A DNA stretch of 64,000 nt from Amphiscolops sp. MND2022. Lineage: Eukaryota. The notes beneath the pieces were generated by a model. It saw only the letters and a program-made list of their open reading frames with translations, was not told the DNA's origin and did no database searches. Made by a program: the position numbers and the translations under genes. Below, piece by piece: positions 5,001 to 29,000 of this stretch. Position 1 is the first letter of the stretch, and each line of letters begins with the position of its first letter. The stretch is taken from NCBI GenBank assembly GCA_964187785.1, contig OZ076409.1:51028001-51092000 (forward strand), read 5' to 3'.

Positions 5001-8000
5001 TTCCAACGATGGAAACGTCTCAAAAAATTCAGAAATTTGCATAAGAAACGTTGAATTTAGACGTTTTATTTCCGACACATCATGGTCACCTTTGAAGTAC
5101 TTTTGAAGCAACCAACTGCATTTTGCACCAGCTTTTTACAGTCTTGCATAACCTGTAATTTTCATGATTTCTTCTGCGCAGAATTAAAAGTGGAACAGGA
5201 TAGTGGGCGCGGTTGGTACAACAAAATCAGTACTAGCCCAGGCGTCCGACATTGGGCAGTTCAGAAGTTATATTTGAATACAAGGTCACGAGGCAAAGGA
5301 CTAAGTGGAGTTGGTTAATTGTTCTTCCAAATAAAGAAAGCTGCAACATAAACTTCAGCAGTTTCGCCCGGAATTTTCTAAGTTTTGTGAAACAAGTTCA
5401 ATGATCAGGTTAAACTTTGCGGCATGTCCGATGAGAAACTTAGAACAGGATATTTCTGTAAGAAAAAATATACCTACCAGAGATCTGTAGTCATCGGCTA
5501 GCTTGAAATTGAGGAAAATTTTGATCAGTATTGTGTATAGCTCGTGTGTATCCACTTCTGGGTTTAGATAGCTAAGTCGTGAGTATTCTTCCAGTTCTGC
5601 GATGTTCAAGTCATCTTCTGTAAAAAATCACAAAAGTTTTCAGACAGTAAGACGGAGACAAATGAATGTCTCGTGATCTAGAAATGAAATTGTGATCTAG
5701 AAACCTGAATATAGTTTTTCAAGAATTCTACCTCGAGTCTACTGGAGTTGAGGTGAGCTGAGCCGACACATGAGCTAGACAATTTAGTGAATAACAAATG
5801 TCTCATGTCAGTTACTGTGCAGTTTTTAAAGCTTCGTCAAAGACAATATTCTATCAAAAACTGCTTGAAAAAACAATTTTTGTACTAAAGTTTGATCGTC
5901 ATCGATATAACCCAGTAAACAAATACTATATGATCCAACGGTTACACGATGTTTTCTACTTGACAATTGGCTCAATTTGGAACTTTTTCCTACACAGAGG
6001 TCTTTCACACATCCAATCTCGCCTTATAGACGTTCTTGTATCCATTAAAATTTATTCTTTTGTCAAAAAAAATCACTCTTCAAAAAAGGATTCCCACAAA
6101 AACGAGTCTCTCGTTAATCGAATTTAACTGTTCTAAAAATTGATGTTAGGTTTGATAGTATTAAACGCCCCATCTAGTTATGATAATGGCTTTCGAAAAC
6201 GATGAATACTTTACGTTTTTGTTTCCATCGAAAAAAGACCATTTATACAAAGTTTTGACACCCTTTAGTGGGCCGCTGATTTTCCTATTTGTTTAGTTAA
6301 GCCATCATCTAGTAATTACCATCCAACTGGCTTGAGTCCAGATTCACAGGTGGCTCTGGCTTGAAAGTCTGGCGAGTCGCCACGGCCAGCTTCTCCAACC
6401 AGACATCCCTGGCGTCGCTGGACCCAGTTGCCATCTCTATGCGGAACTTGCCCCCTCTGGACCCGTAGAAGTAAAACATCCCACTCGAGTCTACACCTTC
6501 CGGTAAATCCGCAACTGCAACCCAAAAAGTTGTCATGTGCACAAACGGTCAAGAAAATTACTACTTTAAATTAAGATCAATCACAAGATTTGCACTTTTT
6601 CCAATTTGCGCTGAATAAATTCAGCAAGAGTTCAACAAACCGGAAAAGCTATTGTCATGAAATAATATCGAAAAACTAACAACAAACTTTGCGTCTGCAG
6701 TTTGAGGGAAACCATAATAACGGCAAATTTTAGAGGTCAACGTTTCTAGGAATTTGAGTTATTTCTGTCTTAAGATATTATTTCATGACAATAGCTTTTC
6801 CGGTTTGTTGAACTCTTGTTGAATTTATTCAGCGCAAATTGGAAAAAGTGCAAATCTTGTGATTGATCTTAATTTAAAGTAGTAATTTTCTTTAAATAAT
6901 TTATATTAATATATCTTTGTCTCTCAAAAAAATTGTTTGAATATACTAATTAGTATATTCAAACAATTTTTTGAGAGACAAAGATATATTAATATAAAAG
7001 GCCAGTTCTAATTTGCTACTGAAAACAAATCAACGATTTGATTACTCTTTGGGTATTGAACAACATCGCTCGTGGCTGTTTCCTGGAAGTCGAGATAATC
7101 GACAACAAATCTGTCCAGGGGTATAATGTCGGCTGGCTCCCCCGCCATTGGCTTGTAAAAACTCAGCACGAAGTTAGATCTGGAAGTTTCCATAAGGATT
7201 GCGTAGCGTTTTTTCCATTTCTCATTAGTCAGTTCCTTGGACATGAAGTAGAGCTCCCTGTAAACCATTTGAAAGTTGTCAAGATAAAAAAACCATTTCA
7301 AACCATATTTTTGATACACTGTGCTGAAAATATCATTTTTCAAGTGTAGAGTTGTCACAAGAAAGGTCATCCTAAACAACCAAAAAAACCAGATCTATAT
7401 GTAGTTCGTTCTAGAATACTCTAGTTTATCGCGAGAAATTTTGTTTATTCTTGTTTCTTGTGAGTTCGTAGATTTTTCTTTGGGAATCTTCGTAATGATT
7501 TTTATCAAAATTTTGAAGAGAATGTAGAGCCGTTGTCCAAAATTCGAAATTTCAGGTACGAATTTATTTCTTATTAATTAATATAAAAAAGGCCTTCGGT
7601 TATTTCAAGAACTTTTACTTATTGAGATGTTGTTTCTAGTCGGCCCGCTAAGTGTTTGCTATTCTTACCCAGTGCACTTCACATTGTCAGGAATGGCCAT
7701 GGATATAGAAACGGAAGCGGTGAAAGGTGGAAGTGACTTCTTTTTGGGGTTAAACGTGATGTCCCTTTTGGTGCCCATCTGGTAAACAATTTGTTTATCT
7801 TTGACTTCGTTCACGTGGGCTTCAATTTTGTCCGGGTAAAGTTGGAAAGTGGTTTTGCCGACTGTATGGATCATAGCAAACGATTTGCCAATGGGTCCTT
7901 CCTTGCGGTAGCTGCACAAAGCCAGTTCTATCTGGGGCAGAGGTCCCCCGAATTGAAAGGTGGCTTCTTCATTCACCCCCTCCAGAATTGATCTATAAAA

Positions 8001-11000
8001 AAATATTTCATACTTGGTGATTTTGAATTTTTTAAAAATGCATTTTTGTTTCGTTTTCTCAACAAGTGAATGTAACCTTCTAGACTTTCTCCTGCAACTC
8101 AATACGGAACATTTTATTTTATCTCATGGATTATTTTACAAGTACTCACGGATCGTCTGTTTTCTCCATCTTGAACCTTTTTTTCTGACCCTTCTTTCCT
8201 ATTCGGTTCATAGTCACTATCATTATGCATGTAGATTTTCTGAAGTGCAATCCCAGGTTTCGAACATTGTCAATTGTCACCTAAACAGGAATTAGTCAAA
8301 GAAGATATCAAAATTCAAAACTTTGAATTATCAAATCAATTTTTACGTTTCTTTTGAGGCATCCATCGAAAACATTCATCCACTCCAAGAGGAAACTCAC
8401 CGTGATAACAATTTCAGGAAGAGACGAGCCAATGGAAGTGTCGGCATCATTGCTGGTTCCACCCAGCAAAAAAGTTCTGAAACAAAATTCGAATTAAAGT
8501 TGATCGTTTTCAAAAGTGTTTTTAGTCGGCGTTTTTTTGTATAAGTGCCTGACTGTTACAGTGAGAAGTTTGTTTTCGTCAGATTGAGTGGTCCACTTTT
8601 TACAAACTGTTCGCCTAAATTCTATACGTCTAAACCCAAAAAGACCCAGCTATATTATGATTCTTTGGCGATATCACAAAACAACGTATTGAAACTCAAT
8701 ACGGGATAGGTTGGTTGGTAGATTAAATGTCTGCTGCATAATAGGTACGCTGATCAAGCCACAGTTGGCGTCGGTTTTCGTTTGTTTTCATTCACTTTTG
8801 TTGAAACTCTTGGCAAGATCTTGTAAAATAGTACATGATCTTGGCGCTCTTGATAAAGATTTGCCACGATTCTTACCATGGGTTTCTAGAAAATTCAAAA
8901 AGCTTGTCAAGAATTTGCACACATTGGGAAGGGCACCTTTCCAAATTTTGGCACTCTGAAACCTTTATTCTCATTCTAAGAAATTCATAGAAACCATCCT
9001 GAGCAGTTTGATGAAATTGGAATTTTTGAGCCTTAAGCGGATGGCCGACGTGAGCCGTTGTCGTTTTGTTCTGTCTTCAATTTATCAATAAACACAAATG
9101 CATGCACACTTGTGTGAGAATCCGCACTTGGTCGGTCTGCCAGCACAATCCGCATAAGGTCGAACATTTACACTCACATTTGACCGGTCGAACGAAACAG
9201 TCGAACTTTCACATAAAAGCGGTCGAACATGCACATTCTATCTTAGACTGTCTGAGACTACAAAAGATAGAAAAAGCCACATGCCTTGGTAGGACATCAA
9301 CACAAACTTGAATGTGTTTTGCAAAAGCTGATTTCATGCTTTTTTGCTCCTTTCCTAATCAGTCTATGACGAATTATAGTTTTTTGTTCTACCTGTTGCT
9401 GTAAAAATTAGGCAATTTGCACGCATTCTTTTAATAAACCTTTCCCCCCATTGCTAATTAAAAAATCTTGATTTTCAACATAGATATAAAAATTTCAGAA
9501 TTGTACTCTAAAAGTAACAAAATTTGAAAATTTTTGGGCAAAATCTAGTTCGTCTTGCGTTCTTTACACTGAATAACCGTTCGAAAGAAACTAAAAGCCA
9601 AGTCAAAGCCAATAAGATGAGTGAGTCAAGTGAGGATGAGTGAGTCAATTTATTCGCAAAAAAATATTGCATTCGTTAATTTTCAATTCTTTAAGCGAAT
9701 AAAAGTGTCCGCTAACGCTTTATATTGTCGCTAACTATCGATATCGCTAGTTTATGCAGAATTTTCGCTACCGCTATCGCTGCCACACCTCTGATAACAC
9801 ATTAGGAACAAAATAAAACTATTTCTAACTTAAACAAAATAAGGAAATATTTGGACGCAAAAGTGAATTCAGAAAACACAAAACTGAATAAGCAGAAGCA
9901 ATAACTTTATCAACAAAGTCCGATAAACATTTCAAATTTATTGAACAAGCTGTCAGAAAATTCAAAATTCAAAACAGTTAAGTCAATTCAGCGTTCACAA
10001 AATATAAAAATTGTCGATATAAATACCATTTCCTAAAAATAAAAAAGTTTTGAACTGAAAGTCTTTGAAATTTCCAACAGTTTTCATTTTCTGGCATCGC
10101 TGACCTGCATATTCCTCACTTTGTCCTTGATATCTTGCCACTTTTGTGCATGAGGATACCTCTTCATTGCTTCCAAACAGACATCTTGACCGGGCAGACG
10201 CCCTTCCATCATTTCTTTTCGAAATTCCTTTCTCAACGCCTTTTCTTGATCTTTCGGCCATTGTCGTCTGGTGGCACCTTTTGGCCTTCCAGCAGTTGTT
10301 CTCTTCTTTTTCTTGGGCCTTCTTTGTTCGGGTTCTTCCTCAGAACCATGGGAAACTTCATCTGCTTGGAATGAAGCGTCATCGTCTGACTTTTCTTCCT
10401 TGTCGTTGTCGTCGTCATCGTCATCGTCATCTTCATCAGACTCATCCTTCTTCCCTTTCTCTTTGGTTCGTTGTGATGTGCTGCGGCTTGAAGTCGCCTT
10501 CGAGGAACTCGGAAGATTTGAATCAGCAGGAGTTTCTACTTCTTCACCTGCATCCTGGAAAGTTCAAAATTTGGGGAAATTATGACACGAAGACGTGATT
10601 TTGCTTTGCAGCTTTTCGAAGAGCAAACTTCTCAAACACCGTATGCTACTATTTCAACAAAGAACTCAAGAAACTAAATTCCGACACTTGTTCAATTGTT
10701 AATCCAATTCGAAGAGAAATCAGTATTCTCAAACACCGGGCGTTGCTATTTCAACAACAAATTCAAGAAACTAAACTCCGACACTTTTTTAACTGTTAGT
10801 TCAATTCGAAGTGAAATTAGTATTCTCAAACACCGGGCGTTGCTAATTCAACAAAGAATTAAAAAAACTGAACTCCGACACTTTTTTAATTGTTAATTCA
10901 ATTCGAAGTGAAAAGTATTCTCAAACACCGGGCGTTGCTATTTCAACTGAAGCTTTTAAAATTATTGAAAAAAAATTAAAATTGGAATTCAAACTTATCA

Positions 11001-14000
11001 ACCTATTCGCAATAGTATTTGAAGTCAAATTAGTAGAAATTCTCACCGAATCGTCAAGATTCAAAGTCGGCTGGAGTGTGTCAAGGTTCTCTAGATAGGC
11101 GTCTTTGACCTTGCCTTTGTCCGCAATGTATAATAGTTTGGTCATTTTTGCCAGGTTTACAGCATCAGTGTGCATCCTGTAGTACTTGTCGTGAACATTC
11201 AGGTCGTGTCCCAGGAAGTCGGCCACCCAAACTCTTTGGTTTTGTGGTAAATCCAAGAACTGGGCTGCAGTGGCAAGATACTTGCGGAGCTTTGTAGATC
11301 GGAACACTTTTTTGTCTTGCAGCTTAAACTCTTCAGCGTATTTCCTCAAAACATCGATGCTTCTGTAGAATTGTTCGCCTCCCTCTGTTTGGAAGAAGTA
11401 GTTGTCACTTTTCAGCTTATCGTCATTAATCATGATGTCTATCACTTCTAGTGTTTTAGGTGGAATCAAAACGGGAACAAATTTTCCACCTTTCCCAGGC
11501 AGTCGCAGCAACGTGTAATACTTTGCGAACATCATTTCAACTTCTGTGAGCTTAAAAAGTTCGTAATCCGTTGTTTGTGCTCTCTGTAAAGCCAGACTTC
11601 TTTGGAGAATCATGTCTTTTCGTGTTACACCCGAAACTTCGCGATCTCGCTTCTTATTAAAACTGACAAGATCAGCAATCACGATTTGTTTCATTTCGGC
11701 GTAGTTGTGAGTCGTTTTGGCCAGCAAACCCGAAATTTTTGCCCCAATCTTTTCTCTGAAGCGCATCATATCCGAAGTTGGAATGACAAGGTGTGTCGAC
11801 TCGTTCTGTTTCTTCAGCATCCTGTTAAAACAATCAAAACATACAAGGCCAATATGAAAAAAAAACTCATTTTGGAAATACGGAATTAAAGCTGAAAACA
11901 TTGAAAAAAGGTTGATGCTATCCGGATATGCACCCACGTGGGATTGTCATAATTCACGACAGCTTCCCTCCTGCACTGTTGCCGCAATGGAAGACTCAAC
12001 ATTGTCAATTTGACGCTTAAGGGCGCGACATCCGCTCAGGCATAGTACCGAGAACGGAATTAAATGAAAGATACTACAAAAATTAAAAAGTTGTCAAACG
12101 ACGTACATCTGCATTTTTCTGAAGTGCAAAATCATTTTAGTTTGTTTTTGTTGAATTTGAAAGTCAGTATGAGACGTTTTTCGTGGTGACATGAAGTGTT
12201 AAAAAATAAAAAACTAACTCACATTTTGCTGGTGCCGAAATGGCTGCCCACTCACTATCTAGAATTTTCAAGAACTCTCTTGCTGTTTCCGATATTGACT
12301 TCTTTTTCCACATCCAAGCCTGGTTGCGTAAGAACTGAGCAGCTGTTTTCAGAATTGATCCCATTTCAATCCTGTAGGACTTTTCGAATGTCATAACAGC
12401 TTCTTTCACTCTTGGCCACATTTCAGGATTAATGACTTCAATCAAGTATGAGCAATGGAGTTTGTGTACAAGCTTGGCCATTGTTCTCATTCTGTCGTTG
12501 ATTTGAAGGTAACCCTCGTCAGCTTTTCTCTTATCGAAGTACCACTGGCCAAGGTATCGTATCAGAGGATCACGCCTTGCAATATTCCCATATTCATCAT
12601 GTCTCATTCGTGTGAAAACATATTGTTCAAATGGGGTGTCTTTGGTAGCTTTCACTTCGAGCATCAATGCAAATGTAGCAGCCTTGATATTTTTTTCCTG
12701 TATTGCTCAAAGCTATCTTTCCACTTGCTGGACAATCTGTTTTATGTCGATACATTGTTTTTTTCTGGAAGAAACCGAGACAACTTGGACAAGGGGCAAA
12801 GTCATAAGCAGATGGATGTTCAGCTACAGTTGGATCCCTGGCAACAATCAATTTGCTCTCGAAGTTTTGGGTCTCGCTGCACTTCTTGAAAACAGCGATG
12901 TTGTATTTATAGAGACCTTCATAGACAATCAAGTGAGTGAGATTGTCCTTCTCTCTCCTCAGTTTTTTAAGTTCGGTCTCAGTTTGAACAGTTTCCCTGC
13001 CTTCTTCAAGATCCTCAATTTCCTTGTTAATCCTTTGAAGGTTTAAAACTCGGAGTTCTTTGCGATGAAATTTATCCACATGACGTGTCAGTTTTTGCAC
13101 CATAGTGGCATTTTCTGGTTCAGTGAAGGCACAGTAAGGACAACATTTTGTTTTTCTGTGTTTATTCAGGGCGACTTGAATTTTGATCTTCCGAAGAAAT
13201 TTAGCATTGAATTGGCATTGTCCTGTTTGTTGGACGTACTTCTCCATTACAAGTTCCATTTCCTGATCGTCCATTTCTTGGGTATCCGTTGAAGTTGTAG
13301 CTGACTTGTAAGAACTTTCACTAATCTGACTGATACCTTCTGCATCCAAAACAACTTCTTTGGTTATTCCAACCAGAGGACCGCATTTCTTCGTTTTTGA
13401 TCTTGTTCGTTCCAATGGCTCATCTTCCGATGGGTATTCGCTGCTCACATCCTCATCGTCCGTGTCATCATCACTTCCGGGAGTGAATCGATCGCTCGAC
13501 GAGGTGGACGAATCTTTACTAGAATCTTCAGTTAATCCACTGGAACATGGGGGCTGCGATTCTTCGTCGCTTGAGCATTGTTCGGAGACGGAATCTTCGC
13601 TTTCTTCAGCTTCCGGTTTCGGCTGTAGGTATTGACGGCCCTTGGCGAGCAGTTTTACAGCTCTGGTTGTTCCCTTCCTGGGTGTCAACTGCAAAACAAC
13701 ACACTAAGTTGAACATCACTATCAACCAATTGAAATGTTTTCGGTAAAACTTCAACAGAAAAACAGCAATTTTCATTAGCAAAACCTTAGAAACTCCGCC
13801 TTCAATTACTTTTTGCTTTATTCCAAAACATCTTTTTTCTACAATTGTTTTTTGACCAGTAGATGTCTCACGAAAGAAACCAAGGGGCTCCGGCATTGTG
13901 AATTTTGGAGAGCTAGGTCGAACATGCGACGTATGTTCGACCAAATGTGATGAACTTTTATGCGAGACGAAAAACGACTACTGAAAAACTTTTGTGGTTT

Positions 14001-17000
14001 TTATCAAGGAAAGTGAACCAAAAGAAAACTAGGTTTACTTTGTGAGGTAGAGAATTATCCGGAGTTGAAGAACTTTCTTCCTTTTTCTGGTATTTGTTCG
14101 TCGTCAACCTTTGAACATATTCCTCGATAGCTGAGTCTATGTTCTTCGGCTTCTTGGCTTGCGGCTGTTTCGTTGATGTCAGGGTCGGCTTTTTGACAGC
14201 CTTTTTTTTTATCTCCACTTGCTGTTGGTTGTTGAAGCGGTTCAGCTGGTCTTGATGCTCCGCAAATGGTTGATGATCTCACTGGTCCACTTTTAGAAGA
14301 CAACGCTGCGACGGACGGCTCATTCGCGTCAATGACAGATGCCAGTTCCGAAGCATGTTCATCAGCAACATCTGGCTTGGCTTCTCCACTTTTAGCTGGT
14401 GGTTTCGGATCAACTATCTCGCCGACAGCTGGCTTGGCTTCTCCACTTTTAGCTGCTCCTTTCTGAGCAAATTTCTCTCCGACAACTGGCTTGGCTTCTC
14501 CAGTTTTAGCTGGTGGTTTCTGAGCAACTTTCTCTCCGGCAGCTGGCTTGGCTTCTCCAGGTTTGGCTGGTGGTTCCGGAACAACTATCTTGCCGACAGC
14601 TGGCTTGGCTTCTCCACTTTTAGCTGTTGGTTTCTGAGCAACTTTCTCTCCGACAGCTGGCTTGGCTTGTCCAGGTTTGGCTGGTGGTTCCGGAACAACT
14701 ATCTCGCCGACAGCTGGCCTGGCTTCTCCACTTTTAGCAGGTGGTTTCTGAGCAACTTTCTCTCCGGCAGATGGCTTGGCTTCTCCAGTTTTAGCTGGTA
14801 GTTTCGGAACAACTATCTCGCCGACAGCTGGCCTGGCTTCTCCACTTTTAGCTGGTGGTTTCTGAGCAAGTTTCTCTCCGACAGCTGGCTTGGTTCCTCC
14901 AGTTTTAGCAGGTGGTTTCTGAGCACCTTTCTCTCCGACAGCTGGCTTGGCTTCTCCACTTTTAGCTTGAGGTTTTGAAGTAAGTTTCTCTACGGCAGCT
15001 GGCTTGGCTTCTCCAGGTTTAGCTGATGGTTCCGAAACAACTATCTCTCCGACAGCTGTTATGTCTTCTCCACTTTTAGCTGGTGGTTTTGAAGCAAGTT
15101 TCTCTCCGACAGCTGGCTTGGCTTCTCCACTTTTAGCAGGTGGTTTTGAAGTAAGTTTCTCTCCGGCAGCTGGCTTGGCTTCTCCACTTTTAGCTGATGG
15201 TTCCGAAACAACTATCTCTCCGACAGCTGTTATGTCTTCTCCACTTTTAGCTGGTGGTTTTGAAGCAAGTTTCTCTCCGACAGCTGGCTTGGCTTCTCCA
15301 CTTTTAGCAGGTGGTTTTGAAGTAAGTTTCTCTCCGGCAGCTGGCTTGGCTTCTCCACTTTTAGCAGGTGGTTTTGAAGTAAGTTTCTCTCCGGCAGCTT
15401 GCTTGGCTTCTCCCCTTCTAGCTGGTGACTTCGGAGCAACTTTCTTTCCGACAGCTGGCTTGGCTTCTCCACTTTTAGTTGGTGACTTAGGAGCAACTTT
15501 CTCTCCGACAGCTGGCTTGGCTTCTCCACTTTTAGTTGGTGACATAGGAGCAACTTTCTCTCCGACAGCTGGCTTGGCTTCTCCACTTTTAGTTGGTGAC
15601 ATAGGAGCAATGGCATGGCATCAAGTTTTTTTACGACAGCTGCCTCGGCTACTCCTAATGTAGTTGGTTGTTTTGAATCATCTTTTCCTGAGGCAGTTGC
15701 TCTGAGTGCCACCACGCATTTCGAGAAACCTTTTACTACACCGGCTGTCTGTTCCGACTTCTCATCTTCGGTTTTTGATTCGGAATCAATTTTCTGTGTA
15801 ATGTTGGCTTTCGATTCTGGTTTTGACGTTTCTATTTTCTGGACCTGGTGTTTTAAAACAACTCTACTTCTGGTCTTCGGCTTCTCTTCCTTTGTAACAG
15901 CTGATTTGTTTGTAACGTATTCTTCGCATGGCGCTTGTCCGGCTGCAGTTAACCTCATTTCATTTTCGGTAAGTGTAAGCATTTGTGCCGTTGCAACCAC
16001 GAGTTCTTTTGTAGATTTTGGGTTTTCCAAATTAACTGGTGTCTCACTTTCGGGAACCGCGGTGTTTTTTCGCCACTCGGCATTTGAGAAGCCATAATCA
16101 TATCGCAGCTCTTCTCCTTAAACAAGGTTGCACGTGAATTTTTCAAGTAAAGCTCATTTCTTTATCTGCGAAGAAAAACACTTGTGTTCCTTTTAAGCTT
16201 CCCCTTATTCCATTTTCTAAAACTAGATATCAATTTTCCTGTGCCCACGTAAAAAGTTTCTTGCTACCCGCTGGTGACAATATTATATTGTTGTTTTCTC
16301 CAGTTTCATTTTTTGGCGCTTCGAAATCTATCAAAATTTTTCTTTCAAAATTGAAACTATGAAAATTTTCAAATGAGTCAAAAATATTTCTGAATTATAT
16401 CAAAACTTATTCTATTTTTGGACAATGTAATTCGATTCATGTAAAACGGACTCAGTATGATGCTGTTTCTTACTAGCAGAAGTTCGGACTGGCAGTTAGT
16501 AAAATTTGTCGTCGTGTTTTTACAGTCACAAGGTCGTACTCGCACTTGGTAGGACATGACTGATTTTACAAGCACATGGTCGGACTTGCACTTGATTGAT
16601 CATGATGTTCAAGCACCACGCGTTGCTACTGTTGTCGCTGTGACCCACCAATGTATATCTTGTAATTAAAAAAATGTCAATTTTTCGAAACCAATTTTTT
16701 GTTCAATCTAATGGCACTGGCATCCTCAGACTTGGGGGCAAATGGTTAACGAAACAATTTTCACGGATGTTTTTTCCACAATGTGATGGTTGGAAAAAAT
16801 GCTAACTTGATAAACTTTTTTCGAAGTTACAATTGTTCTAATTTTGGAACTCTTGTTGCAGAAATTCCAATGAAACATTTTCAGAGATACCAAAAGTTCT
16901 AAAACTTCCCTTGATGTTTCGTATTTCTGGCACTTTCTTAACTTATTTGTTGTTGAACTTTGTAATTTTAGGCAAAAGAGCTGCGGTATTTTGAAACGCG

Positions 17001-20000
17001 TTCGCACAAAGGTATATTTTTGGTAAAGTAATTGGTTGTTTTAACTTCAAAGGTTCTATCTTATGTTAGTGTTGTTAGTATTGTGGACAATCCCGCTATC
17101 GCGCGATTGTCGAGCTCATCTTTTGGGGACAGCTCGTTACAGTATATGCAAATAGATGGATATGATGGTCCAATGCCAATAACGACTGCGTTACACTATT
17201 TCAGTTTTCTGCATTGCGAAAAAAATTTGAATTTAGCAAATATTTTCAATTTTTTGCTGGAGTCGACCGTCATTACGCGGCAGCCCTTCGCGCCACTTCA
17301 TGTCGGTTTTTGTCAAAACGGGCTACTTGTAACGCAGAACAAGTAATGTATTGTCTCTCCGCTTCGCTGCCTTGCTGCACATAAGTGCATACTAGGTGCA
17401 TAAGAACATAGCTGATTACATTATCATAATTAGTTCATTGGTGTTTAGCACACAAACTCAATCACTTTGCTTTTTCCCTAATTCAATTTTCAACCAATCA
17501 GAAGCGTTTATTAAACGTTTTTGGCGCAATGAAAAGCTTACTAAATTTCAACGTTTAGGGAAACAGCCAAAATTCTGGCGGTTACCAGAAAAAGTCCATT
17601 TCGAGGGATTGTTTAAAAAGATTACGTACCAAATAACAAGAGCAAATAACAAAAACAAAATTAGTTTCAAATAACATTAAATTGAAAGTAATTTCTTATA
17701 AAATAAAAATCAAACTGAATACTTGGTTGAAAAATTGAACTCACGTAATTTTATCTGTAATTTTTAATACTTTTTTCAGTGAATCCTTTGAATTTTCTAT
17801 AATGTTGAACACTAAAACTTTCTCGTGTTTTTATTTGCTCTAATGCTATTTGGGAATTCACCGTTTGAAAACAATTTTGCTCAATGTCATGCAATTTAGA
17901 AATTATGATTAAGATTTGGGATTTATGCTAAGCCCCATCCTGGTTTAAAGACGTCACCTGGAATCGAGAAACTTGAACACCTCTCAAATAGGGAACTTGA
18001 TTTGAGCCTATCAAATTATGTACTTACTCATCCCTGGAACTTTTGCCAAAAGTGATTGGAATATCAACGCCCTGTGTTAGTGAGTTATCCCAACTTAGAT
18101 GATTATATACATTCCGTATAATGAAACAATTTGGCATCTGGAAAGCAGTGATGTCCATTTATAATAATATAAATGACTTTTCATGTGCCAGTGGAAAGGA
18201 CAGAAAAAACTTATACAGCTCGTGGACTCTATTCCAAGCAACGCCCGGTGTTCGTGAATTTTTTCACGACTTGGTCGAACATGAACACTACTTTTCACTA
18301 TCGGGTTAAAATAGCAACGCCCGGTGCTTGAATTCTATAACGACTTAGTCGAACATAAACACTACTACTTATCACTACCTGGTTAAAATAGCAACGCCCG
18401 GTGTTTGAATTTTATGGTGACTTAGTCGAACATAAACACTACTACTTATCACTACCTGGTTAAAATAGCAACGCCCGGTGTTTGAATTTTATGGTGACTT
18501 GGTCGAACATAAACACTACTAGTTTGTGTTTTGAAATAGCAACGCCCGGTGTTTGAGCTTCATTACCACTTGGTTGAACTTAAACATTATTTTTCATTCC
18601 CTGTACACGAAAGTTATTTTTCAACGTTATATATGGCTCTTTGCTGCAAAACATCCGCTCTAATGCTCAATGTTGACCCATGATAATCCTATTTTCCAAA
18701 GAAAAAACCAAAAAACGTTCAGAAGGGCCTAATTAGAAGTTAACTTGGGCTCCGCGACAGTACCAAAAACGAACATAAAACGCGATTTTTTATGCAAGAA
18801 CAATATGTTTGAAATATAAATAGAACGTTTTTCAAATTGCACTTGGTGTGGCCTTACCCTGTACTTTACTAAGCATCGATGGGACTTTTTAACGCAGTCG
18901 TGTTTGTCTTCAATCACCAAGTAATTTACTGATTGCTCTCTCCTAATTGCCAGCTTGTATGCAAAGCTCTCAACTTGGTTCATTCACCACCCAACACCCC
19001 ATGGGGATGGCAGGGTTTTTTGACGCTTCGCTTATTATTGTTTAAAAAATAAAAAGGACGTTTTCGAAAATGCACTCGGTGGGACCTGAAACTAGTTTAC
19101 TAAGCATTGATGGGTCTTTAACCGCAATCTTGTTTGTTTCTATTCGCCAAGTAAATAAGTGGTTGTCCCCCTCCTGATTAAACTCAAATCAACAGCTTGT
19201 ATGGCAAGTTCTCAACTTGGTTCATTCACCACCCAACACCTGACAGGCGGATAACTATACTCTATCTTAATTTTTAGCACTTTTTTCAATCGATAAACTA
19301 TTCGGAATCAATTAGTGGGACATACTTTGTGGGAATTGAAAAATTACTAGAGCGTGGTCATGTGTCAAAAGTATGGAAGAAAGGGACCATGTGTTCAATC
19401 CTCCTCAAGGGGCCGCTACCTGTCAGTTGAAAGTTATTCTTTTAAATTTTAAGGCGAAGAAAATTTGCGTTTGAAGAACATAGTTTGAACAAAATTTGTA
19501 TTTGAATCTCAAACTGTCAAAATGAAATTAGTTTCCAATATGAACGTTTAAGATGCTAAGTTTAAGTCTTTTACATTCGAACACTGTCACTGATTTCTCA
19601 AAACATTTCTGACTGTCATTTTGACTGTTTTTTGGTAGCAACTAAATCTGGGTTTCAATAACTTGAGAATTCTGGGAAACATTACAGAAGATTGTTCCAC
19701 AATTTGAAAAATTAAACTGACCTGGAAGAATAACACGAGTTGCCAGGAAGATGCAATGTGGTCTGCCCTCGTCGTCATGAACCTTTTTCATTCGACAGTT
19801 GGCAGCAACTGATTTGTCCTTGTCGTTGATAAACCTCGCCAAGCCAGAGTTCGTCTCATCGGAAGTGTCAATGAACACTGTGTCTTTTCCCTCCTGAACT
19901 TCCATCACGTAGTCAAAGTTGGCGACTTGAGTTGCTCTCCTCGGCCCCCAATAACTCAGGAGAAACTCTTGCGCTTCAAATTGCTTTTTCACGAAAAGCC

Positions 20001-23000
20001 CTCTTCCAGTCGTTCCATTGGCGAATTTGACGGTCTGGACAATGAAATCCTTCGGATCAGAATAGAGGAAGTCTTTCCACGAATCAGTTTTTCGCGCAAC
20101 ACTACGAGTAGACATGGTTTTCTGAAGAGCAAGAAAGGTAGGGTTTTGTCACACAGAGCAGTTCAACCAAAATTTAACATCAATAAAGCCAATGAAATAT
20201 GAACTCTACATTATAATAAATAAGTAAACCTTTTAGTGTTCAACTGAAACCGTTCGATTATGTTTTAGAATTTAGGAAGAATGAAAAAATGTGCTCAATG
20301 ACAGTGTTGCTACTAGGAGAAAATTCAATCGAGAAAATCTAATACTTTGCGGATTTATGGTGTCTACTTTTGATCCGGAAAAAACATTAGTGAGCCAAAA
20401 TACTGTGATTCATTGTTTTAGCGAGAAAAAAAAAGAACAAAATTTTGAACCAATGTTGTCAGTTTTGAAAGCAAAGAGTTCTCAAGAAATCAATGTCAGC
20501 TTCGAATTGAAGAAAAGCCAAAGTTTTCATTGGTCTGGTCACGCTCCCATTTTCTGTTCAATTTTGTTGGACCCAAGATTCTATTTTGTCCCAGTGGAAG
20601 TCCCAAGTGGATTCGCAGTACATGTAGAGGAAAACCTCCCAGGGGCTCTCGAAGGGCTCTTTTCCTTTGGGGTGTCTACGTTGGTCAGCCTTGATGATAG
20701 CCAGCATCTTCCTCAGCTCAACTTTACTGACAGTGCTCTCTGAACGATGACGATATGACCACTCTCTGTAGAGGAATATGACAACCAAGGCTTCAAAGTG
20801 AGGAAATGCAAAGGAGGGTTGGAAACCTTGTTCGAGTTCCTTCTCGAAGGCCAGGGCGCTCCGATACATGTGCTTCTCCATAATGAAGTTACAGCCAAAC
20901 GCCACGCTCTCTTCCGGAGTGAACACAAAATGGATCCATTGACTGGGTAAGAACAGACAATCGCCTTTTTCTAGCACTATCTGATGCGTTGTCACGTCCC
21001 GGTGAAAGCCGAAGAAGAATGAACTGAAACAGAGAGCATGTTGAAGAAGCAACTATTAACCCAGGAATTGGTCATAGGGATCTAAAATTCACTACCCTTC
21101 GTTCATCGCGCACATAGTTGTCATATATAAAAATCGGTGGTAGATTAATACCATCGATCAATAGCAACGCTCGGTGCTGGAAAAAAAAGTAACAATTGTT
21201 GCGACCTAAATTTGAGATAAAAAAGGAACGCCCGGTGCTGGAAAAAAATTAATTATTGCGGCTTCATATTTAAGATGAAGAAGCAACGCCGTGATGGAAA
21301 ACGAGAGTGTTTTTAGGATTCGAACGAAAAAGCAATCGATCATTGATGCTTCTCCAACGTTCTAAAAATTGAAGAAAAAACCTAAAAATTACATTTGAAT
21401 TTGTACCTATTTTTCAGAACATTTATGACGCAAGCAAAGCTCCTGATCATGTGCCTTTGAAAAAGTCTCACTTACTTTCTGTTACCGCTCGCAAGCCATT
21501 CCTCAAAAAGCTTTTGATTTTCCTCGGTTGGCTCCACAACAAAGAAGTGTTTCTGGCCCTTTGCCAAAATGTAGAAAACGGATGTGCCCGTGAAGTCCTG
21601 ATGCCAGTTAGTTTGCGCTCCAGCTTCTGACATCAGCAGGTAGTCACTAATTCCTGATGTGCAATCAAATGCCAACTGGTTTTTGGGGCTCATAGAATTC
21701 TTCATGCAATGGCCAAAGGAAATGTCCGTCACTATATTGGGCAAACAAAACCGGTGGACCATCCCGCTCTTTGAATCCGCGTTGAAGTCAATCACATTCA
21801 TCGGATGATATTCAGGCTCAAGGCTGCGGTCTTCATTGTGCTCAAGAAACTCCTCCAGAGTGAATTCATCTTCATTTTCTTGAATCGAAGAGAAACAGAC
21901 ATTAATTTTGACCTCCCCTGGAATTCCCTCTGTTACACAACGAAAAGACGTCAAGCTTTCAGCAGGAGGAGTTGCGATACCAGGAAGTTTGTTGGTACAC
22001 TGGCGTATAACAACAGGTTTTGAAGGGCTCCCGTTGCAAAACTTGGATCTAATATCGTCCACATTCAGCACATTAAAATCATTTGTGGCAGGCGGTGCTG
22101 TTGCAAACACATGCTGCTGGAATTCCACAGAACCAACTTTGACTCCAATTGGGGGAAGCGAACTGAAGTTTGTTGAGTAAGAAGCCACGCCCTCCACGGC
22201 AGTCTCCAGCTGTTCCTCGACCGCGACTTCGGTTGTCCTCGGAGGTGTTTTTTTTGAGTCTTCAGCTCTCTCTTGAACGTCAACCGCTTCAGCACCCGTA
22301 AGAGTTTCTTCGGATGAGACTTCACTTCTCTCTCCAAGAGAAGCAAGGGTTTCCAGTTTAAATTGAAGCGACTCGTCACTTGAGAAAGGAGGGCTCTCAT
22401 CCGCGAGAGATCGTCGTTCTGGGGTCTCTGGAACAAACGGTTCCAAAACTGCGCTTTGGTCGACAAGATTTGCACTTTCCTCAACTGCACCAGAGGATGT
22501 AGTGGGCTTTTGTTCCAAAAACGTGAAAGTTGTCGCCGTTTGGGAAGTACTGGTTGTGGCTGGAGCAAGATGGTACTTTTTTTTGTGCCGCGTTAGATCA
22601 AAACTTCGAGTCGTTGTCGTGCCACAAAATTCACACTCGAAGATACCTTTTTGGCGTTCTGAAACATAAGACTCGTTATGCGAAGGAATCAAACGGAAGC
22701 CAAAAAGAATGCTACAATATTCGACTTGGTGCCAGTAAAAAAGTTGGTTATAATCGAAGTTTATCGATCAATCTTAGATGTAATCTAGTCACTCTTCATG
22801 CGGTGCAACACCCGGTGCTGGAGAATGAGACTGTTCCTTAAAACTCGAAGAAAAAGCAACGCCCAGTGCTACAAAAATGAGGTTAAAACAAGCGCGACAC
22901 AATTCAACTAGCCACTGTCATGAATACTATATTGGTATTTATTTATATATTATTCAGGACAGGGCTTGTCAAACTATGCCAGAGACAGGTTATTCTAACA

Positions 23001-26000
23001 TATCTCCCTGAATTTCGTTTTATGTATTCAATTAAAAAAGAAGTATCGAAACACTTTTGACGAAAATCACTTTCTGAGTTTTTCATTGAAATCTTTTTCA
23101 GAAACGCAGGATCTTTTTCTCAAAATATTGAAGAATAGTCTGTATTTCCAACCACCACTTGCAGGAAAATACAGTCCAGGTTGAAATTTAAAAACACAGC
23201 ATAACAATTTCTGACAAAGACTGCATCAGACTTCATTCATTGAACTCCGTTGAATGAAGCGAGAAGGTCTTGGTCCCAAAAATGTTGAACGAAGAATCGA
23301 GAAACGATATCAACTTTACTACCAGTAACAATGTTTTTCGAGTGGAGCAGAAATTAAAAAAAACCCATCAAACACTCAATTAAACTACCAGAATTCCTTC
23401 ACCTGGATTCATTCAACCAAAACAAATCATTGTAACAAACTTTCAAAATGTTAAAATTTAACATGTCGAGCAGATTAGAACTGCACCATGTGTCTTTCAA
23501 GGAAACCATGTTGAACAAAACAAGGAAGTGCCGGCTTCGAAAAGGATCCATCCCTTACTTCCTTCAACACAATTTTCCGCGCAGGAACGAAAAAAAAATG
23601 TTTAACGCGACGTATTTGATCTGAGAAGCAACTCTCCTGCTATAGTGTAGTGTTCATATAGTCCGAGCATTGCACCCAACTAAAAGAGCGTCTGAGGTTC
23701 GATGTTCATTTGAAATTCTTTATACGTACAAATGGAAAGAGTTCTACGAAGTTGTAACAATTTTATCGAAAAATTTTCTCTCCAGAACCCACTTGGTTTA
23801 TTTCTTGGGAAAATCAAGAAAAAATGAAGGAAAAGAGGAAAAAATTTAACTTTTTTAGCAGAAACGATCACGCACTTGCCGTGGCGTTCATGTTCGACCT
23901 ATGCTGCTGAGTGTTCAGTTGCTGAAAGGTTGAAAATCATAGTGAAAGGTCGGACATTCTACAGGAGTTCGACCTTTGCCCCTAATTGTGATTACCACAG
24001 CACACAATGAATCTCGTGATCGCTTATCTCATTTCGTGATTTTATGTCGACAAAAATTGGGCTCGGAACCAATTGACGAGGTTCAACTTGATTGCATCGC
24101 ATTTTTTTGAGAATTCTAGCGTCAATTTGAATTTTGACACCTTAATCATTTCAAACTAGTAACGCAAGGTGCTGGTGATTACTACATCTTTACTGTACTT
24201 TAATCTGAAAAAGAGCTAGTGAAAAAGCAGCACCCGAAACTTGAAATATGTTTGAAAAGAAAATTTTGATTAGATTTTATTGCTGAGAAAATTTCTTTTG
24301 AAATAGGCGCCTTTAACACAAAAAGACATTTGGTCTTTTCGGACAAAAAGGTTTGAAAATTAGGGGAAAATAAAATCACAGCAATTTTCGTAACGAGTGT
24401 TCGTAAAACTTCCGGACCGCGCGTCAGCGTTTTGCCCTTCTTTCATTTTCACATGTTACCAAGGTTTAATTTCAAACAAATTGATGTTTTTATGTAACCG
24501 AACAACCGTTCAGGAAAAGCAACGCCCAGTGCTGAAAAAAACACAATGTCAATGTGATTCCGCCTTAAAATTTGGACAAAAATAGCAACGCCCGGTGCTG
24601 GAAAAGATTGGGTTTTTGCGCAGTATTGTTTTCATTTAGAAAAGCGTGGCCCTGTGCTGGAAAACTGGACTGTTATCGAGCCTTATAGTTTGAACGGAAA
24701 TTGTAACGCCCGGTGCTAGAAAAACGAGTTTGTTATTGTGCCTGAAGAGTTGAACAAACATAGCAACTCCCGGTGCTGGAAATAGAAAATTTTCGCGCCT
24801 TGTTGTCACGACTCTTCAGACGGACGACTGTCTGGTGATAAGAGTCTGAGTCTACTTAAAAGAAACTTAGTTTATTCAAAGTATCAACTACGATGTAATT
24901 TGCTCTCAGAACCTATTTGTTTTCAATATTGATTTTTCAAGTTTCTATCAGGGAGGTACTAAAGGGAACATGCTCGACGTTGATCACCTGGACATTGACC
25001 CAAGGGATATAATGGTTTTCATATATCAATCGGGACGACGTCTAGTTGAATCAGGTCAAAAAATTGCATTCGAAAGAGCAACAACTTTATCCGAACCCTT
25101 CGTGACACTTTCGTTTTGTGATTAGAAAAATGAAAAGTCCCGCGTGAAAGAAAGAAAAATGAACTGTTTACACTTGAAAACGGAAGACAAGAAAACAGAT
25201 ATTGCGATTCTTCTCGAGTATGATACATAGGTTCTACGAAAGACTTCTGTAAACACATAACGTAACACTTTCTGACGAAGACTGAATCAGACTTCTTTCA
25301 TTGAACTTTTTTGAATGAAGCGAGAAGGTCTTGGTCTCAAAAATGTTGAACGAGGATTCGACAAAGGACTTCAACCATTACTACAGGTAACAACCTATTT
25401 CGAGTAGAACAGACTCAAAAAATAAACGTAAACGCTTGTTCAAACCACCAGAATTTATTCATGTGGTTTCATTCATCTAATGAAAAGTATTGTGACAATT
25501 TGATAAAAAGGTCGTTACAATTTCAGACTAAGACTGCACCATGTTCATTTCAGTGGAACTATATTGAAGCACACAAGTGGGTCTTGGGCTCGAAAATTTT
25601 GAAAGCGATGAATCGAGGAATCGTTCCCTCCCTTGCTCTTCCGGTAACAGAACATTCCGACCAGAACGAAACAAACATCATTTTACGTGACACATTTGGT
25701 CTGGTCGCCAATACTCCTGCTATAAGGTAGTGTTCATATAGTAAGAGCATTGCGCCCAACCGTAAGAGCGTCCAAGTTTTTGTTATGTATATGATGTTCT
25801 TCACACATACAGAAGGAATGAGTTCTACCAAGTTTAAAAAAAACTATCGAAATGTTTTCTATCCAGGACTCAGTTAGGATTTTCTCTCGAAAATTTTTGA
25901 ATAAAAGAAAATAGAGTAAAAACAAAATTTTTTTAAAGCAGAAACGATCATGCAACTGCAATGTCGTTCATGTTCGACCTGTGCTGCTGGGTTTTTAATT

Positions 26001-29000
26001 GCTAAGAGGGTGAAAATCATAGTCGAAGGTCGAACATTCTACATTTCATTTTATACAAGTTAATTTAATTAATTTAATTTTACAAGCTTTAATTTTAAAC
26101 AAACTGATGTTTATTATACACTTGGACAGCCAAGCAGAAATGCAACTCCTGGTGCTGGAAAAAAATTGAGAAAGGTATTCGGCCCCAAAATTTGAACAAA
26201 AAGCAACGCCCGGTGCTGGGAAACTAGACTGTTATTGGGCGTTAAACTTTGAACAGAAAGAGCAACTGTTGATTTTTGAAGTTTCTACAGGAAACACGCT
26301 AAACATAGATCACCTGGATATTGACCCAAGGGATATAATGGTTTTCATATATCACTCGGGACAACGCTTGGTTGAATCAGGTCAAAAGATTGTATTTGAA
26401 AGGGAAGCAACAATTTTTATCCCAACCTTTTGTGACACTTTCGTTTTGTGATTGGAAAATTGGCTAGCAAAAATATATTAAATATATTGTCCATCTTGAT
26501 ACATGTATTTGAAAAAAATCAATTTAATCAAAAATTCATTTTCTTTTGACTTATTCAAAACACTAAAGATTTTTGTTTTATTCCAGCAAGGGGGGTTCGT
26601 GTTTGAAATTAAAATACGCGTGAGAATTTCCTAACGCGTATATATATTTTTGTGTTTTAAAAAAACAATAAGTTTGATTGAGTATTTCAAACAATAATTT
26701 GAAAATAGGTTTTTCGAAAAATCAACTGACAACACATCAATTTCATTTTTTTTTCATTGTTTAGTAAAATCAAGCATTTAATGTTATTTCAGTTTGCGGG
26801 GTCAATTTGAATATTTCAAGTTTTAAGGGGACGAGAACTTCCTAAAGCTTCCTAAAACTTCCTATACCGAACAATAATTTGAAATTAACTGTATTTCAAA
26901 AAATGAACTGAGTTATCTAATCATGAAGTAAAGTTCAACGTTCAAAAAAATCGAAGTTTTAATTTTTCAATGTTCCTGTTGGGGGGTTTGATTATAATAA
27001 TTTGTGAATGTGCATGAATTTCCAAATGCGCATAACGTTTTGGTTTTTGAAAGTTAAGTCCGACTTACAGTATTCCAAGCAATAAACTAATTTGATGAAT
27101 TTAATTCAAAGGAACTAGTTGATTGTTTCAAACGTTGTTCCAGTTGGGGAGTATTTGATTAAACCAATTGATAATATTATTTTCTGCATCATATAATTCC
27201 CAACCACCTTATAATTCTCAACCACTGAGCGTTGCTATTTTAATGAACAACCAATATGAAAACATTAGCCGAAAGGATTTTGTCAGGACTACAAAAAACC
27301 GAGTTAGTGTCAAGCAGCTCTCAACACTCATTTGCAACTCAATTATCGGTTCACCTTCAGACACATACAATTGCGTATACTGTAACGAGCTTCCCCTAAC
27401 GAATGATGAACTTGACAGCGTGATTAACCACTACACTAACTCGGTTTGAAGAGAAGCAGTTTTAACTTAATCATGCAAGATTACGTACCAAATAGCATAT
27501 AAGAGAAAATAACGAAACGAAATTAGTCCCATTCAACGAAAAAGCAAAATTAGTTTCATAAAAACATTTAAAAAAACCGAATACAGTTAAACAATTAGCT
27601 CACGAATTTTGTCTCTAATGTTGATACATTTTTAGTGAGTGTTTTGAATTGTGAATGCTTTTGACCACAAAAACTTTCTCGTAAACAATTTTATTGTTTC
27701 CTGAAAAGCATTTCATTTTTTTAATTTGAAACCTTTAGTTTATTTGCTATTATGTTAGTTCGACCTTGTGCTGGTAAAAAAGTCTCATGTCCTACCAAGT
27801 GCGGGTCCGACCTTGTGCTAGTAAAATTACGACCGCATATAGGACATTAACACAAAACGTGTTGTGCAAAAGCTGATTTCATGCTTTTTTGCTCCTTTCC
27901 TAAAAAACTATACACAAGTGTCCAGCGTCACCAGTGATGACTTTACACGAGGGGGTGCCCTCGTTCAGAATTTAACCCTGAAAAACAGCAAAGGAAGAAA
28001 CCCCCTCCTGTTTTAGGTTTTTAGCCATGTTTGGGATCAAAATTTTCAAACTTGCTGTTAGGAATAGTGGGTTGAAATTTCATTGATTGCCTTGCAAACG
28101 TTTTAAGCACCACTAACATGCCCCCCGTTGAGAAATTTCAAACACCGCCCCTGTGCGTCACGGAATGGAAAATAAACTACAATTGGAAACTGAAGACCAG
28201 AAATGAGATTACTCTTATTTCAAGAACGATACATAGGTTCTACGAAAGCTTCTGTAATTGAAGACTTTTTAAAAAAGGTTAATTCCCAAATAGCAAACAA
28301 CATAAGTCTTGAAAACTAGACTGTTACTGCAACTTAAGATTAGAATAAAAGAACAACGCTCGGTCCTGGAAATTGAGACTATGACTGTGCCTTAAAATTC
28401 GAACAAAAAAGCAACGCCCGGTGCTAACAAACTAGACTGTTACTGCGCCTTAAGATTCGAAGAAAAAAGCAACGCCCGGTACTGGAAATTGAGACTATGA
28501 CTGTGCCTTAAAATTCGAACAAAAAAGCAACGCCCGGTGCTAACAAACTAGACTGTTACTGCGCCTTAAGATTCGAAGAAAAAAGCAACACCCGGTACTG
28601 GAAATTGAGACTATGACTGTGCCTTGAAATTCGAACAAAAAAGCAACGCCCGGTGCTAACAAACTAGACTGTTACTGCGTCTTAAGATTCGAAGAAAAAA
28701 GCAACGCCCGGTACTGGAAATTGAGACTATGACTGTGCCTTGAAATTCGAACAAAAAAGCAACGCCCGGTGCTAACAAACTAGACTGTTACTGCGCCTTA
28801 AGATTCGAAGAAAAAGCAACGCCCGGTATTGGAAATTGAGACTATGATTGCGCCTTAAGATTCGAAGAAGAAAGCAACGCCCGGTACTGGAAATTGAGAC
28901 TATGACTGTGCCTTAAAATTCGAACTAAAAAGCAACGCCCGGTGCTAACAAACTAGACTGTTACTGCGCCTTAAGATTCGAAGAAAAAAGCAACGCCCGT

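Follow-up and report, generated by a model that had tools for sequence, protein, structure and literature searches.

A CryptonV-like element of about 34 kb in Amphiscolops with a predicted SET–tyrosine recombinase fusion and a JmjC cargo gene

Introduction

Cryptons (CryptonA, CryptonF, CryptonI and CryptonS) encode a tyrosine recombinase (YR) only, and their terminal direct repeats of 4–6 bp are viewed as recombination substrates, with a proposed circular intermediate (PMC3212892; this and all other papers are cited for the portions of their text available to us). Classical Cryptons are described there, and in the available text of PMC13465315, as lacking terminal inverted repeats. CryptonV elements are YR DNA transposons of animals, and certain CryptonV families have microsatellites as their specific insertion site (PMC8869645); CryptonV is also listed in PMC4455052 and PMC5753468. 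Here, we analyse a multicopy element of 33.6 kb within a 64,000-nt stretch of DNA (the window) from Amphiscolops sp. MND2022, contig OZ076409.1, positions 51,028,001–51,092,000, in which a YR is apparently fused to a SET domain with a histone demethylase gene alongside, a combination that suggests an animal transposon editing its own chromatin. Coordinates are window positions; copies, end arms, motifs and a sister family were searched for in the genome set G000, where positions are given as G000:contig:range.

The recombinase gene very probably belongs to an autonomous CryptonV-like YR DNA transposon of about 34 kb, of which the window holds a defective copy. CryptonV, reportedly described by Kapitonov and Jurka in Repbase Reports in 2012, was compared by description, not by sequence, and the likeness lies in an animal YR DNA transposon residing in a microsatellite, here (CA)n. 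With Cryptons in general the element shares a YR without a reverse transcriptase (RT) match, mobility in multiple copies and 5-bp terminal direct repeats (ACACA); it differs in its perfect 20-bp inverted arms, its 34 kb, its cargo and the T-K-L-R found in place of H-x-x-R, and DUF3504 or any other Pfam YR found no match in the element open reading frames (ORFs) scanned. By analogy, it would work like a Crypton and is most likely a CryptonV.

Starships are large elements with a YR gene at one end, cargo, short direct repeats that stem from microhomology and, in some, inverted repeats; the available text of the same source calls them unique to filamentous fungi and gives their captain as DUF3435 (PMC13465315). 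Our element resembles them in being large and end-defined, with its YR gene at one end and cargo genes, and differs from them in that those of its relatives that have names are animal proteins, the YR is preceded upstream by a cargo gene on the same strand and is fused to SET, and DUF3435 gave no match at E ≤ 0.5 in the element ORFs scanned. The best fit is a CryptonV-like element grown to Starship-like size.

SET genes occur in HarbingerS and in Phytophthora MuDR (PMC12730594), and SETMAR, a single domesticated host gene, joins SET to a transposase (PMC12062965). All of these use DDE transposases, whereas the SET domain in the window has a YR as its fusion partner, belongs to a mobile element with many copies and has a JmjC gene as its neighbour. 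Our literature search met no account of a SET–YR fusion, nor of a giant YR element in an animal that carries a JmjC gene; Repbase Reports, most subscription papers and supplements lay outside that search and may hold one, and the available text of PMC9406493, PMC6431247, PMC4455052, PMC5753468 and PMC13465017 contains no such mention. The SET–YR fusion itself is widespread in databases; what adds to it is the giant end-defined element with a writer, an eraser and family-specific arrays.

Ends, target and copies of the element

The element and its borders were placed by copy alignment and paired ends:

9111–42732, the whole DNA transposon, 33.6 kb, multicopy
9106–9110, plus strand, site of the left direct repeat; most copies read ACACA, from which the window copy departs by one mismatch
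9111–9135, plus strand, left end; TGTGT followed by a 20-bp inverted-repeat arm (9116–9135)
42709–42732, plus strand, right end; the 20-bp arm (42709–42728) followed by AAAG
42733–42737, plus strand, site of the right direct repeat; most copies read ACACA, from which the window copy departs by two mismatches

End anatomy and flanks were assessed in 24 copies, in which sharp, identical ends sit on unrelated flanks on at least 11 large contigs and the left end opens with TGTGT throughout (24/24). All four other copies that were aligned match the window from 9105 to about 42540–42735, mostly at 97–98% identity; 25 paired ends are spaced 30.7–42.9 kb apart (median 33.7 kb), the 20-bp arm has 151 exact matches in G000 (control 0), and the mean pairwise difference among copies is about 1.5%. 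The flanks are CA-rich in the 24 copies, with an exact CA run of 6–33 nt on the left of 17. The left repeat is exactly ACACA in 17 copies and the right one in 18, with 12 copies exact at both, a direct-repeat count that is partly confounded by the (CA)n target. Twelve of the 24 adjoin an end of a sister family, and both families use the (CA)n target. A TGTGT-starting sequence that adjoins the right end of one copy inside a CA tract (L060, G000:C2:98788034-98788353) is perhaps the end of a third family.

Around 24% of the element falls within listed ORFs. None of the element ORFs scanned matched RT, Rfam at gathering thresholds found nothing in 9000–43000, and the tRNA search was likewise empty.

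Structure of the recombinase gene

The gene occupies one end of the element, a location that the original prediction had missed. On the minus strand, five exons with GT–AG borders encode a SET domain, a repeat linker, two zinc-finger-like motifs, the YR and a three-helix helix-turn-helix (HTH) domain:

19722–20115, minus strand, exon 1; ATG and most of a SETD8-like SET domain
16117–19721, minus strand, intron 1, 3605 nt; contains two repeat arrays
14039–16116, minus strand, exon 2; SET tail EELRYDYG..W, then a linker of 57-bp (19-aa) Lys/Ala/Pro repeats
12219–13688, minus strand, exon 3; acidic stretch, two Cys/His zinc-finger-like motifs, helical region before the YR
about 13150–13070 and 12795–12730, minus strand, the two zinc-finger-like motifs of exon 3; Cys/His pattern
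11047–11821, minus strand, exon 4; YR catalytic domain
10084–10554, minus strand, exon 5; acidic stretch, basic patch, homeodomain/Myb-like HTH (10290–10087), stop
11649 (R), 11493 (K), 11286 (R), 11208 (H) and 11181 (Y), minus strand, putative YR catalytic codons in exon 4

Two of the junctions originally proposed stand: at 19722/16116, exon 1 ends in phase 1 at GTCAGT and exon 2 opens behind an AG with G-EELRYDYG..W in phase, and 11047/10554 is also in phase with GT–AG borders. The third, 12223/11821, has to be given up, as it is out of phase and yields a TGA; the in-phase donor is 12219, giving ...APAKCE-MLKK, and the GT at 12222 that had been taken as donor is private to the window copy (GT in 1 of 23 copies, AT in 22). 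Exon 2 was also expected to run on toward the repeat, zinc-finger and YR exons, and this order is found, although an intron absent from the earlier list (14039/13688) intervenes and the window copy has frame breaks.

These breaks lie near 15620 and 14210 in exon 2 and near 12700 in exon 3, and the spliced model of the window copy contains 49 stops. The break near 15620 is private to this copy; those near 14210 and 12700 are A-run length variants, each found in two copies. The window copy is defective and the full protein cannot be made from it, which had escaped the original prediction. Twenty-five copies of the family were examined, of which 12 lacked an exon anchor in the retrieved stretch and 13 could be assessed over all exons; an uninterrupted model of 1668 aa is present in another copy, G000:C9:3668854-3702378.

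Splice sites are kept across copies: intron 1 has its donor GT in 15/15 (the copies with both anchors) and its acceptor AG in 23/23, intron 2 keeps donor and acceptor in 22/23 each, intron 3 in 23/23 and 25/25, and intron 4 in 25/25 and 21/21. A single spliced SET–zinc finger–YR–HTH protein, as predicted, is thus well supported at the sequence level by the uninterrupted copy, by the exons and phases of the sister family and by continuous SET–YR models in other animals. Three other gene features were considered and rejected. An alternative exon 2 donor at 14108 is ruled out, since the sister protein fits the frame and a donor at 14038; a 27-nt mini-intron at the 12700 break is ruled out because it preserves the frame and one shorter A-run form is present in 20 of 25 copies; and a small CxxC ORF in intron 1 has no tblastn support, a 65-nt DNA match of 77% being all that is left of it.

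The tyrosine recombinase and helix-turn-helix domains

The YR exon yields no match by Pfam or PDB sequence search, and the fold alone detects the YR. The original prediction had staked itself on structure prediction recovering a YR catalytic fold, and such a fold is recovered: the model (pLDDT 88.9) has its best matches in XerA with Z 13.3 (root-mean-square deviation, rmsd, 3.7 over 178 aligned residues) and XerH with Z 12.7, and all seven Foldseek matches at E ≤ 0.001 are Xer recombinases (XerH, E 1.6e-4). Among 93 aligned sequences, the residues corresponding to R58, K110, R179, H205 and Y214 are conserved in 89, 91, 91, 92 and 87, respectively.

The last exon had been said to encode a Myb/SANT-like domain. 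Its C-terminal 68 residues do fold, in the predicted structure, as a three-helix HTH with a conserved Trp, yet in structural comparison homeodomains come closer to this HTH (Z 8.1, rmsd 2.0 over 59 aligned residues) and Myb scores lower (Z 5.3, rmsd 2.7 over 51), and therefore 'Myb/SANT' is valid at the superfamily level only; at such Z values, the HTH family cannot be fixed. The domain has no Foldseek match at E ≤ 0.001 and no Pfam Myb match, and its match to an Atlas Rap1-Myb cluster at 0.78 is a lead only.

The SET domain

The SET assignment holds in a profile search (PF00856, 26.4 bits against a Pfam cut-off of 22.4), and so does the predicted resemblance to SETD8: SETD8/KMT5A accounts for 14 of 15 PDB matches and is the closest solved relative (E 1e-5), with catalytic motifs kept in the element and ND in place of its NH. 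In 34 family SET domains with at least 110 aligned residues, G-x-G, the first Tyr, the N of R-x-x-N and the E are each present in 33, and the two tyrosines of YxYG in 23 and 26. SETD8 writes H4K20me1.

A sister family and selection on the fusion

The genome also harbours a sister family whose gene shares the five exons and their phases, and all three copies examined are open; its intron 1 measures 436–438 nt in three copies, against 3605 nt in the window element. Between the families, identity is 75% in SET, 71% in the YR exon, 77% in the HTH and 27% in the linker, and of the first 16 residues past intron 1, 15 are shared. Synonymous sites approach saturation (proportion of synonymous differences, pS, 0.77–0.83), and the nonsynonymous counterpart, pN, is 0.144 in SET, 0.175 in the YR, 0.140 in the HTH and 0.507 in the linker. 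These values show strong purifying selection on SET, and purifying selection on the YR and HTH as well. Among the best 148 scored of 640 candidate YR exon matches in G000, 85 have at least 89% identity and 61 have 69–71%.

The sister element itself is about 58 kb long (G000:C1:47186085-47243911; L045, L106–L110), with TGTGT-starting ends of its own and a matching gene order, and the end motif of its family has 783 matches in G000. Several listed copies hold an inverted internal copy of the right-end motif about 15–16 kb from the left end, and the segment between the two right-end motifs could be an invertible or separate module. Inverted pairs of the sister right-end motif 3.65 kb apart (G000:C1:19385523-19389176, C1:47246049-47249725 and C2:46215152-46218825) are likely to mark a non-autonomous derivative. 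A subfamily that is 96% identical in the YR but 84% in JmjC (G000:C2:57089550, C6:55555016, C8:51414051 and others), many copies of which score equally, is probably a very recent burst.

Cargo genes and motif arrays

The rest of the element and the introns of the recombinase gene harbour cargo genes and tandem arrays:

20558–22658, minus strand, cargo gene for a C2H2 finger and a KDM2/KDM7-type JmjC demethylase; first exon not located
28971–29348, minus strand, cargo ORF encoding a CxxC..H..C finger; the sister element has a counterpart with 47% identity over 79 aa
32745–33377, minus strand, cargo ORF, paralog 1; 34% identical to 36979–37380 and, like it, matched by a counterpart in the sister locus
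36979–37380, plus strand, cargo ORF, paralog 2; 84% identical in the sister locus
10629–10947, minus strand, motif array in intron 4, 97-bp unit
16518–16605, minus strand, array in intron 1 of a 46-bp unit that resembles the end arm
18237–18586, minus strand, motif array in intron 1, 77-bp unit
28313–29092, plus strand, motif array, 58/116-bp unit
34152–35531, plus strand, two motif arrays, 49-bp and 52-bp units
39660–40222, plus strand, motif array, 49-bp unit

The JmjC gene is spliced (exons 22658–21476 and 21023–20558), shares its strand with the YR gene, upstream of which it lies, and is open in the window copy, with the H-x-D...H iron ligands present. It accompanies both families, being 47–56% identical in the sister family, and has 150 scored matches in G000. 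KDM2A, PHF8 and KDM7A are the closest solved relatives of the domain (E 7e-11 and 1e-8), and catalytic motifs are kept; no PHD or CXXC reader was seen in the cargo protein, where a single C2H2 finger precedes the JmjC domain. PHF8/KDM7 enzymes remove H3K9me1/2, H3K27me2 or H4K20me1. ORF 32745–33377 has no Pfam match, and its Atlas matches stay under 0.9.

A 14-nt motif has 44 occurrences in the window (0.01 expected), every one of which falls within the element and none outside it. A 15-nt form has 1517 matches in G000, and among those listed on contig C1, 79 of 80 are inside four end-defined copies. Core motif sites number 45 in the element, 43 of them outside listed ORFs. The sister family keeps the core AAAWAGCAACGC, followed by GATGTG instead of CCGGTG (27 sites). 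The shared core contains GCG, and the JmjC fingers of both families have R, D and R at helix positions −1, 3 and 6, which we take the C2H2 code to read as GCG.

VANDAL elements and VANC, from plant MuDR, offer a parallel, with short family-specific motifs that tandem repetition has multiplied in introns and elsewhere in non-coding sequence and that differ between related families; VANC acts on DNA methylation, and its binding has been shown by experiment (PMC5735166). The element resembles this system in its family-specific motifs in non-coding tandem repeats, and the likeness of its arrays to the tandem-repeat targets of VANC suggests that an eraser or writer may be recruited sequence-specifically.

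Relatives in other animals

SET and YR share one chain in 32 of 156 fetched family proteins. The ten that were looked up are gene models from fish, frogs, newt, sea urchin and sea cucumber, named 'uncharacterized' or 'SET domain-containing'; their presence in fish, amphibians and echinoderms argues that the fusion is old and widespread. The YR family comprises 15,369 clusters at E ≤ 0.001 and has no Pfam model. In a midpoint-rooted FastTree phylogeny without a clade test (120 of 158 proteins, 38 being left out for a missing anchor or for length), SET is scattered and the window and sister proteins sit on a long branch. Two relatives, P0057 and P0033, have the YR fused to a chromodomain or an ATF7IP-binding domain in place of SET. 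Among 72 candidate stretches of viral contigs there was no relative.

Weighing the explanations

Several observations weigh against an autonomous YR transposon with a SET fusion. An empty site for the window flank was not found, none of 40 scored matches reaching the part of the query next to the junction, and a circle junction was not seen either. Topoisomerase IB, a protein with the same fold, scores near the Xer matches (Z 11.8); the YR residue roles are putative assignments by motif order and conservation, not by residue-level superposition; and the His of the usual H-x-x-R is Thr in the window and in 87 of the 93 sequences, with Lys after it in 52 and Arg in 19 (the window YR reads T-K-L-R). 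The gene is uninterrupted in only 1 of the 13 fully assessable copies, some A-run differences among copies may be assembly errors, and the joining across intron 1 is inferred from DNA, not transcripts. SET and JmjC appeared in none of 80 short metagenome loci of the family, only 10 of which had at least 4 kb upstream (the hidden Markov model control worked), and in the tree SET is missing from 90 of the 120 rows, 17 of which do have a long N-terminus; SET is therefore not universal, and the toolkit is not a property of every member. Were SET and YR made as separate transcripts and the apparent splice due to chance, the inability of the window copy to produce the full protein would come as no surprise; yet in both families the SET C-terminal motif that exon 1 lacks is found in phase at the start of exon 2, with 3.6 and 0.44 kb of intron in between, the tail is conserved in 15 of 16 residues and continuous SET–YR models exist in other animals, which makes this very unlikely. 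Introns, host-like SET and JmjC domains and large size would suit a cluster of host genes within a segmental duplication, or else a domesticated recombinase, in place of a mobile element, but 24 copies on at least 11 large contigs share identical sharp ends with inverted arms amid unrelated flanks, the mean pairwise difference is about 1.5% and most copies are decaying, which leaves that idea barely credible. Nor is an integrated virus, polinton-like or similar, with the YR as integrase at all probable: the 34-kb size fits it, as do weak Atlas matches (scores under 0.9) between one cargo ORF and phage clusters, while the Pfam scan, which covered the longer or conserved element ORFs, met no capsid, polymerase or packaging gene, none of the 72 viral stretches is related, the genes are spliced and only about 24% of the element lies in listed ORFs.

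What the SET domain does is a closer call. The NH histidine position holds D in 24 of the 34 family domains and H in none, which also counts against a working enzyme, and the sequence ARFIND had accordingly been flagged in the original prediction as casting doubt on catalysis. Because of these same counts, ND is a lineage signature and not decay of the window copy, and with ND usual in the family and the other catalytic motifs conserved the doubt is weakened, not removed. A real fusion whose SET is catalytically dead, a histone-binding pseudo-enzyme that only docks on nucleosomes or histone tails, is a serious if lesser contender: NH is ND or similar in 34/34, some members have F, C or L at the YxY positions, and the chromodomain or ATF7IP-binding domain of P0057 and P0033 points to chromatin tethering as a shared theme. 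Against it, G-x-G, the first Tyr, R-x-x-N, E and both tyrosines of YDYG are kept in the window and sister families and in most relatives, and active SET/PR enzymes without the NH histidine exist (PRDM9). On sequence grounds, an active lysine monomethyltransferase, with H4K20 as the first candidate, seems slightly the better bet, and action on another substrate would be improbable.

Proposed mechanism and implications

If the element moves as a Crypton-like YR transposon, the YR would bind the two end arms, cross over within the ACACA repeats and excise a circle, which would then recombine with an ACACA inside a (CA)n tract and so reintegrate (the Goodwin model for Cryptons, as told in the available text of PMC3212892). 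The HTH or the zinc-finger-like motifs may read the arms or the microsatellite. The fusion would tether the SETD8-like domain wherever the recombinase binds, so that nucleosomes of the element ends or of the target could be its substrate or its docking site, and the JmjC cargo would most likely strip repressive lysine methylation from the element's own chromatin. More tentatively, and by analogy, the element might be an animal counterpart of Starships with its own chromatin toolkit, in which a SET writer fused to the YR and a C2H2–KDM2/KDM7-type eraser would both be recruited by dozens of predicted family-specific sites within the non-coding tandem arrays, each family keeping its own copies unsilenced in a VANC-like manner via histone marks; the SET–YR fusion would then be old, widely distributed and undescribed in this YR lineage, reaching from echinoderms to amphibians. 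We regard this extended scenario as doubtful.

Large cargo-carrying YR elements have so far been described as fungal, and here one appears in an animal-type genome, recently spread and precisely bounded. Transposon escape from chromatin silencing is largely an open subject in animals, and this element unites a candidate writer, a candidate eraser and a candidate target motif, with the differing motif of the sister family providing a ready-made specificity swap test. Given a very large YR family that has no Pfam model and is annotated as 'uncharacterized' or 'SET domain-containing', many 'SET genes' of fish, amphibians and echinoderms are probably transposon genes. A recombinase that moves at least 34 kb into (CA)n tracts is also a candidate tool for large-cargo integration.

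Other features of the element and window

The element contains internal duplications at 23200–27840 and 31250–32260 with short paralogous ORFs (24871/26170; 27159/31759). An inverted repeat of about 200 nt (29908–30101 versus 39453–39658) is 83–96% complementary across 9.4 kb and has a third relative at 17617–17826 in intron 1; judged by sequence, these repeats form a small nested repeat family.

Outside the element, the minus strand at 7008–8123, about 1 kb from the left end, carries exons of what is likely a host gene, with a weak match to a PH domain. On the other side, a Gypsy-type long terminal repeat retrotransposon occupies 44856–51854 on the plus strand, with a gag-like ORF and pol in separate frames; pol includes protease, a weak dUTPase match, RT, RNase H and integrase. 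A second partial gag is found at 59042–59665, and between the retrotransposon and this partial second copy sit ORFs of 388, 388, 240 and 296 aa without a Pfam match (52033–56157, minus strand, and 57225–58115, plus strand).

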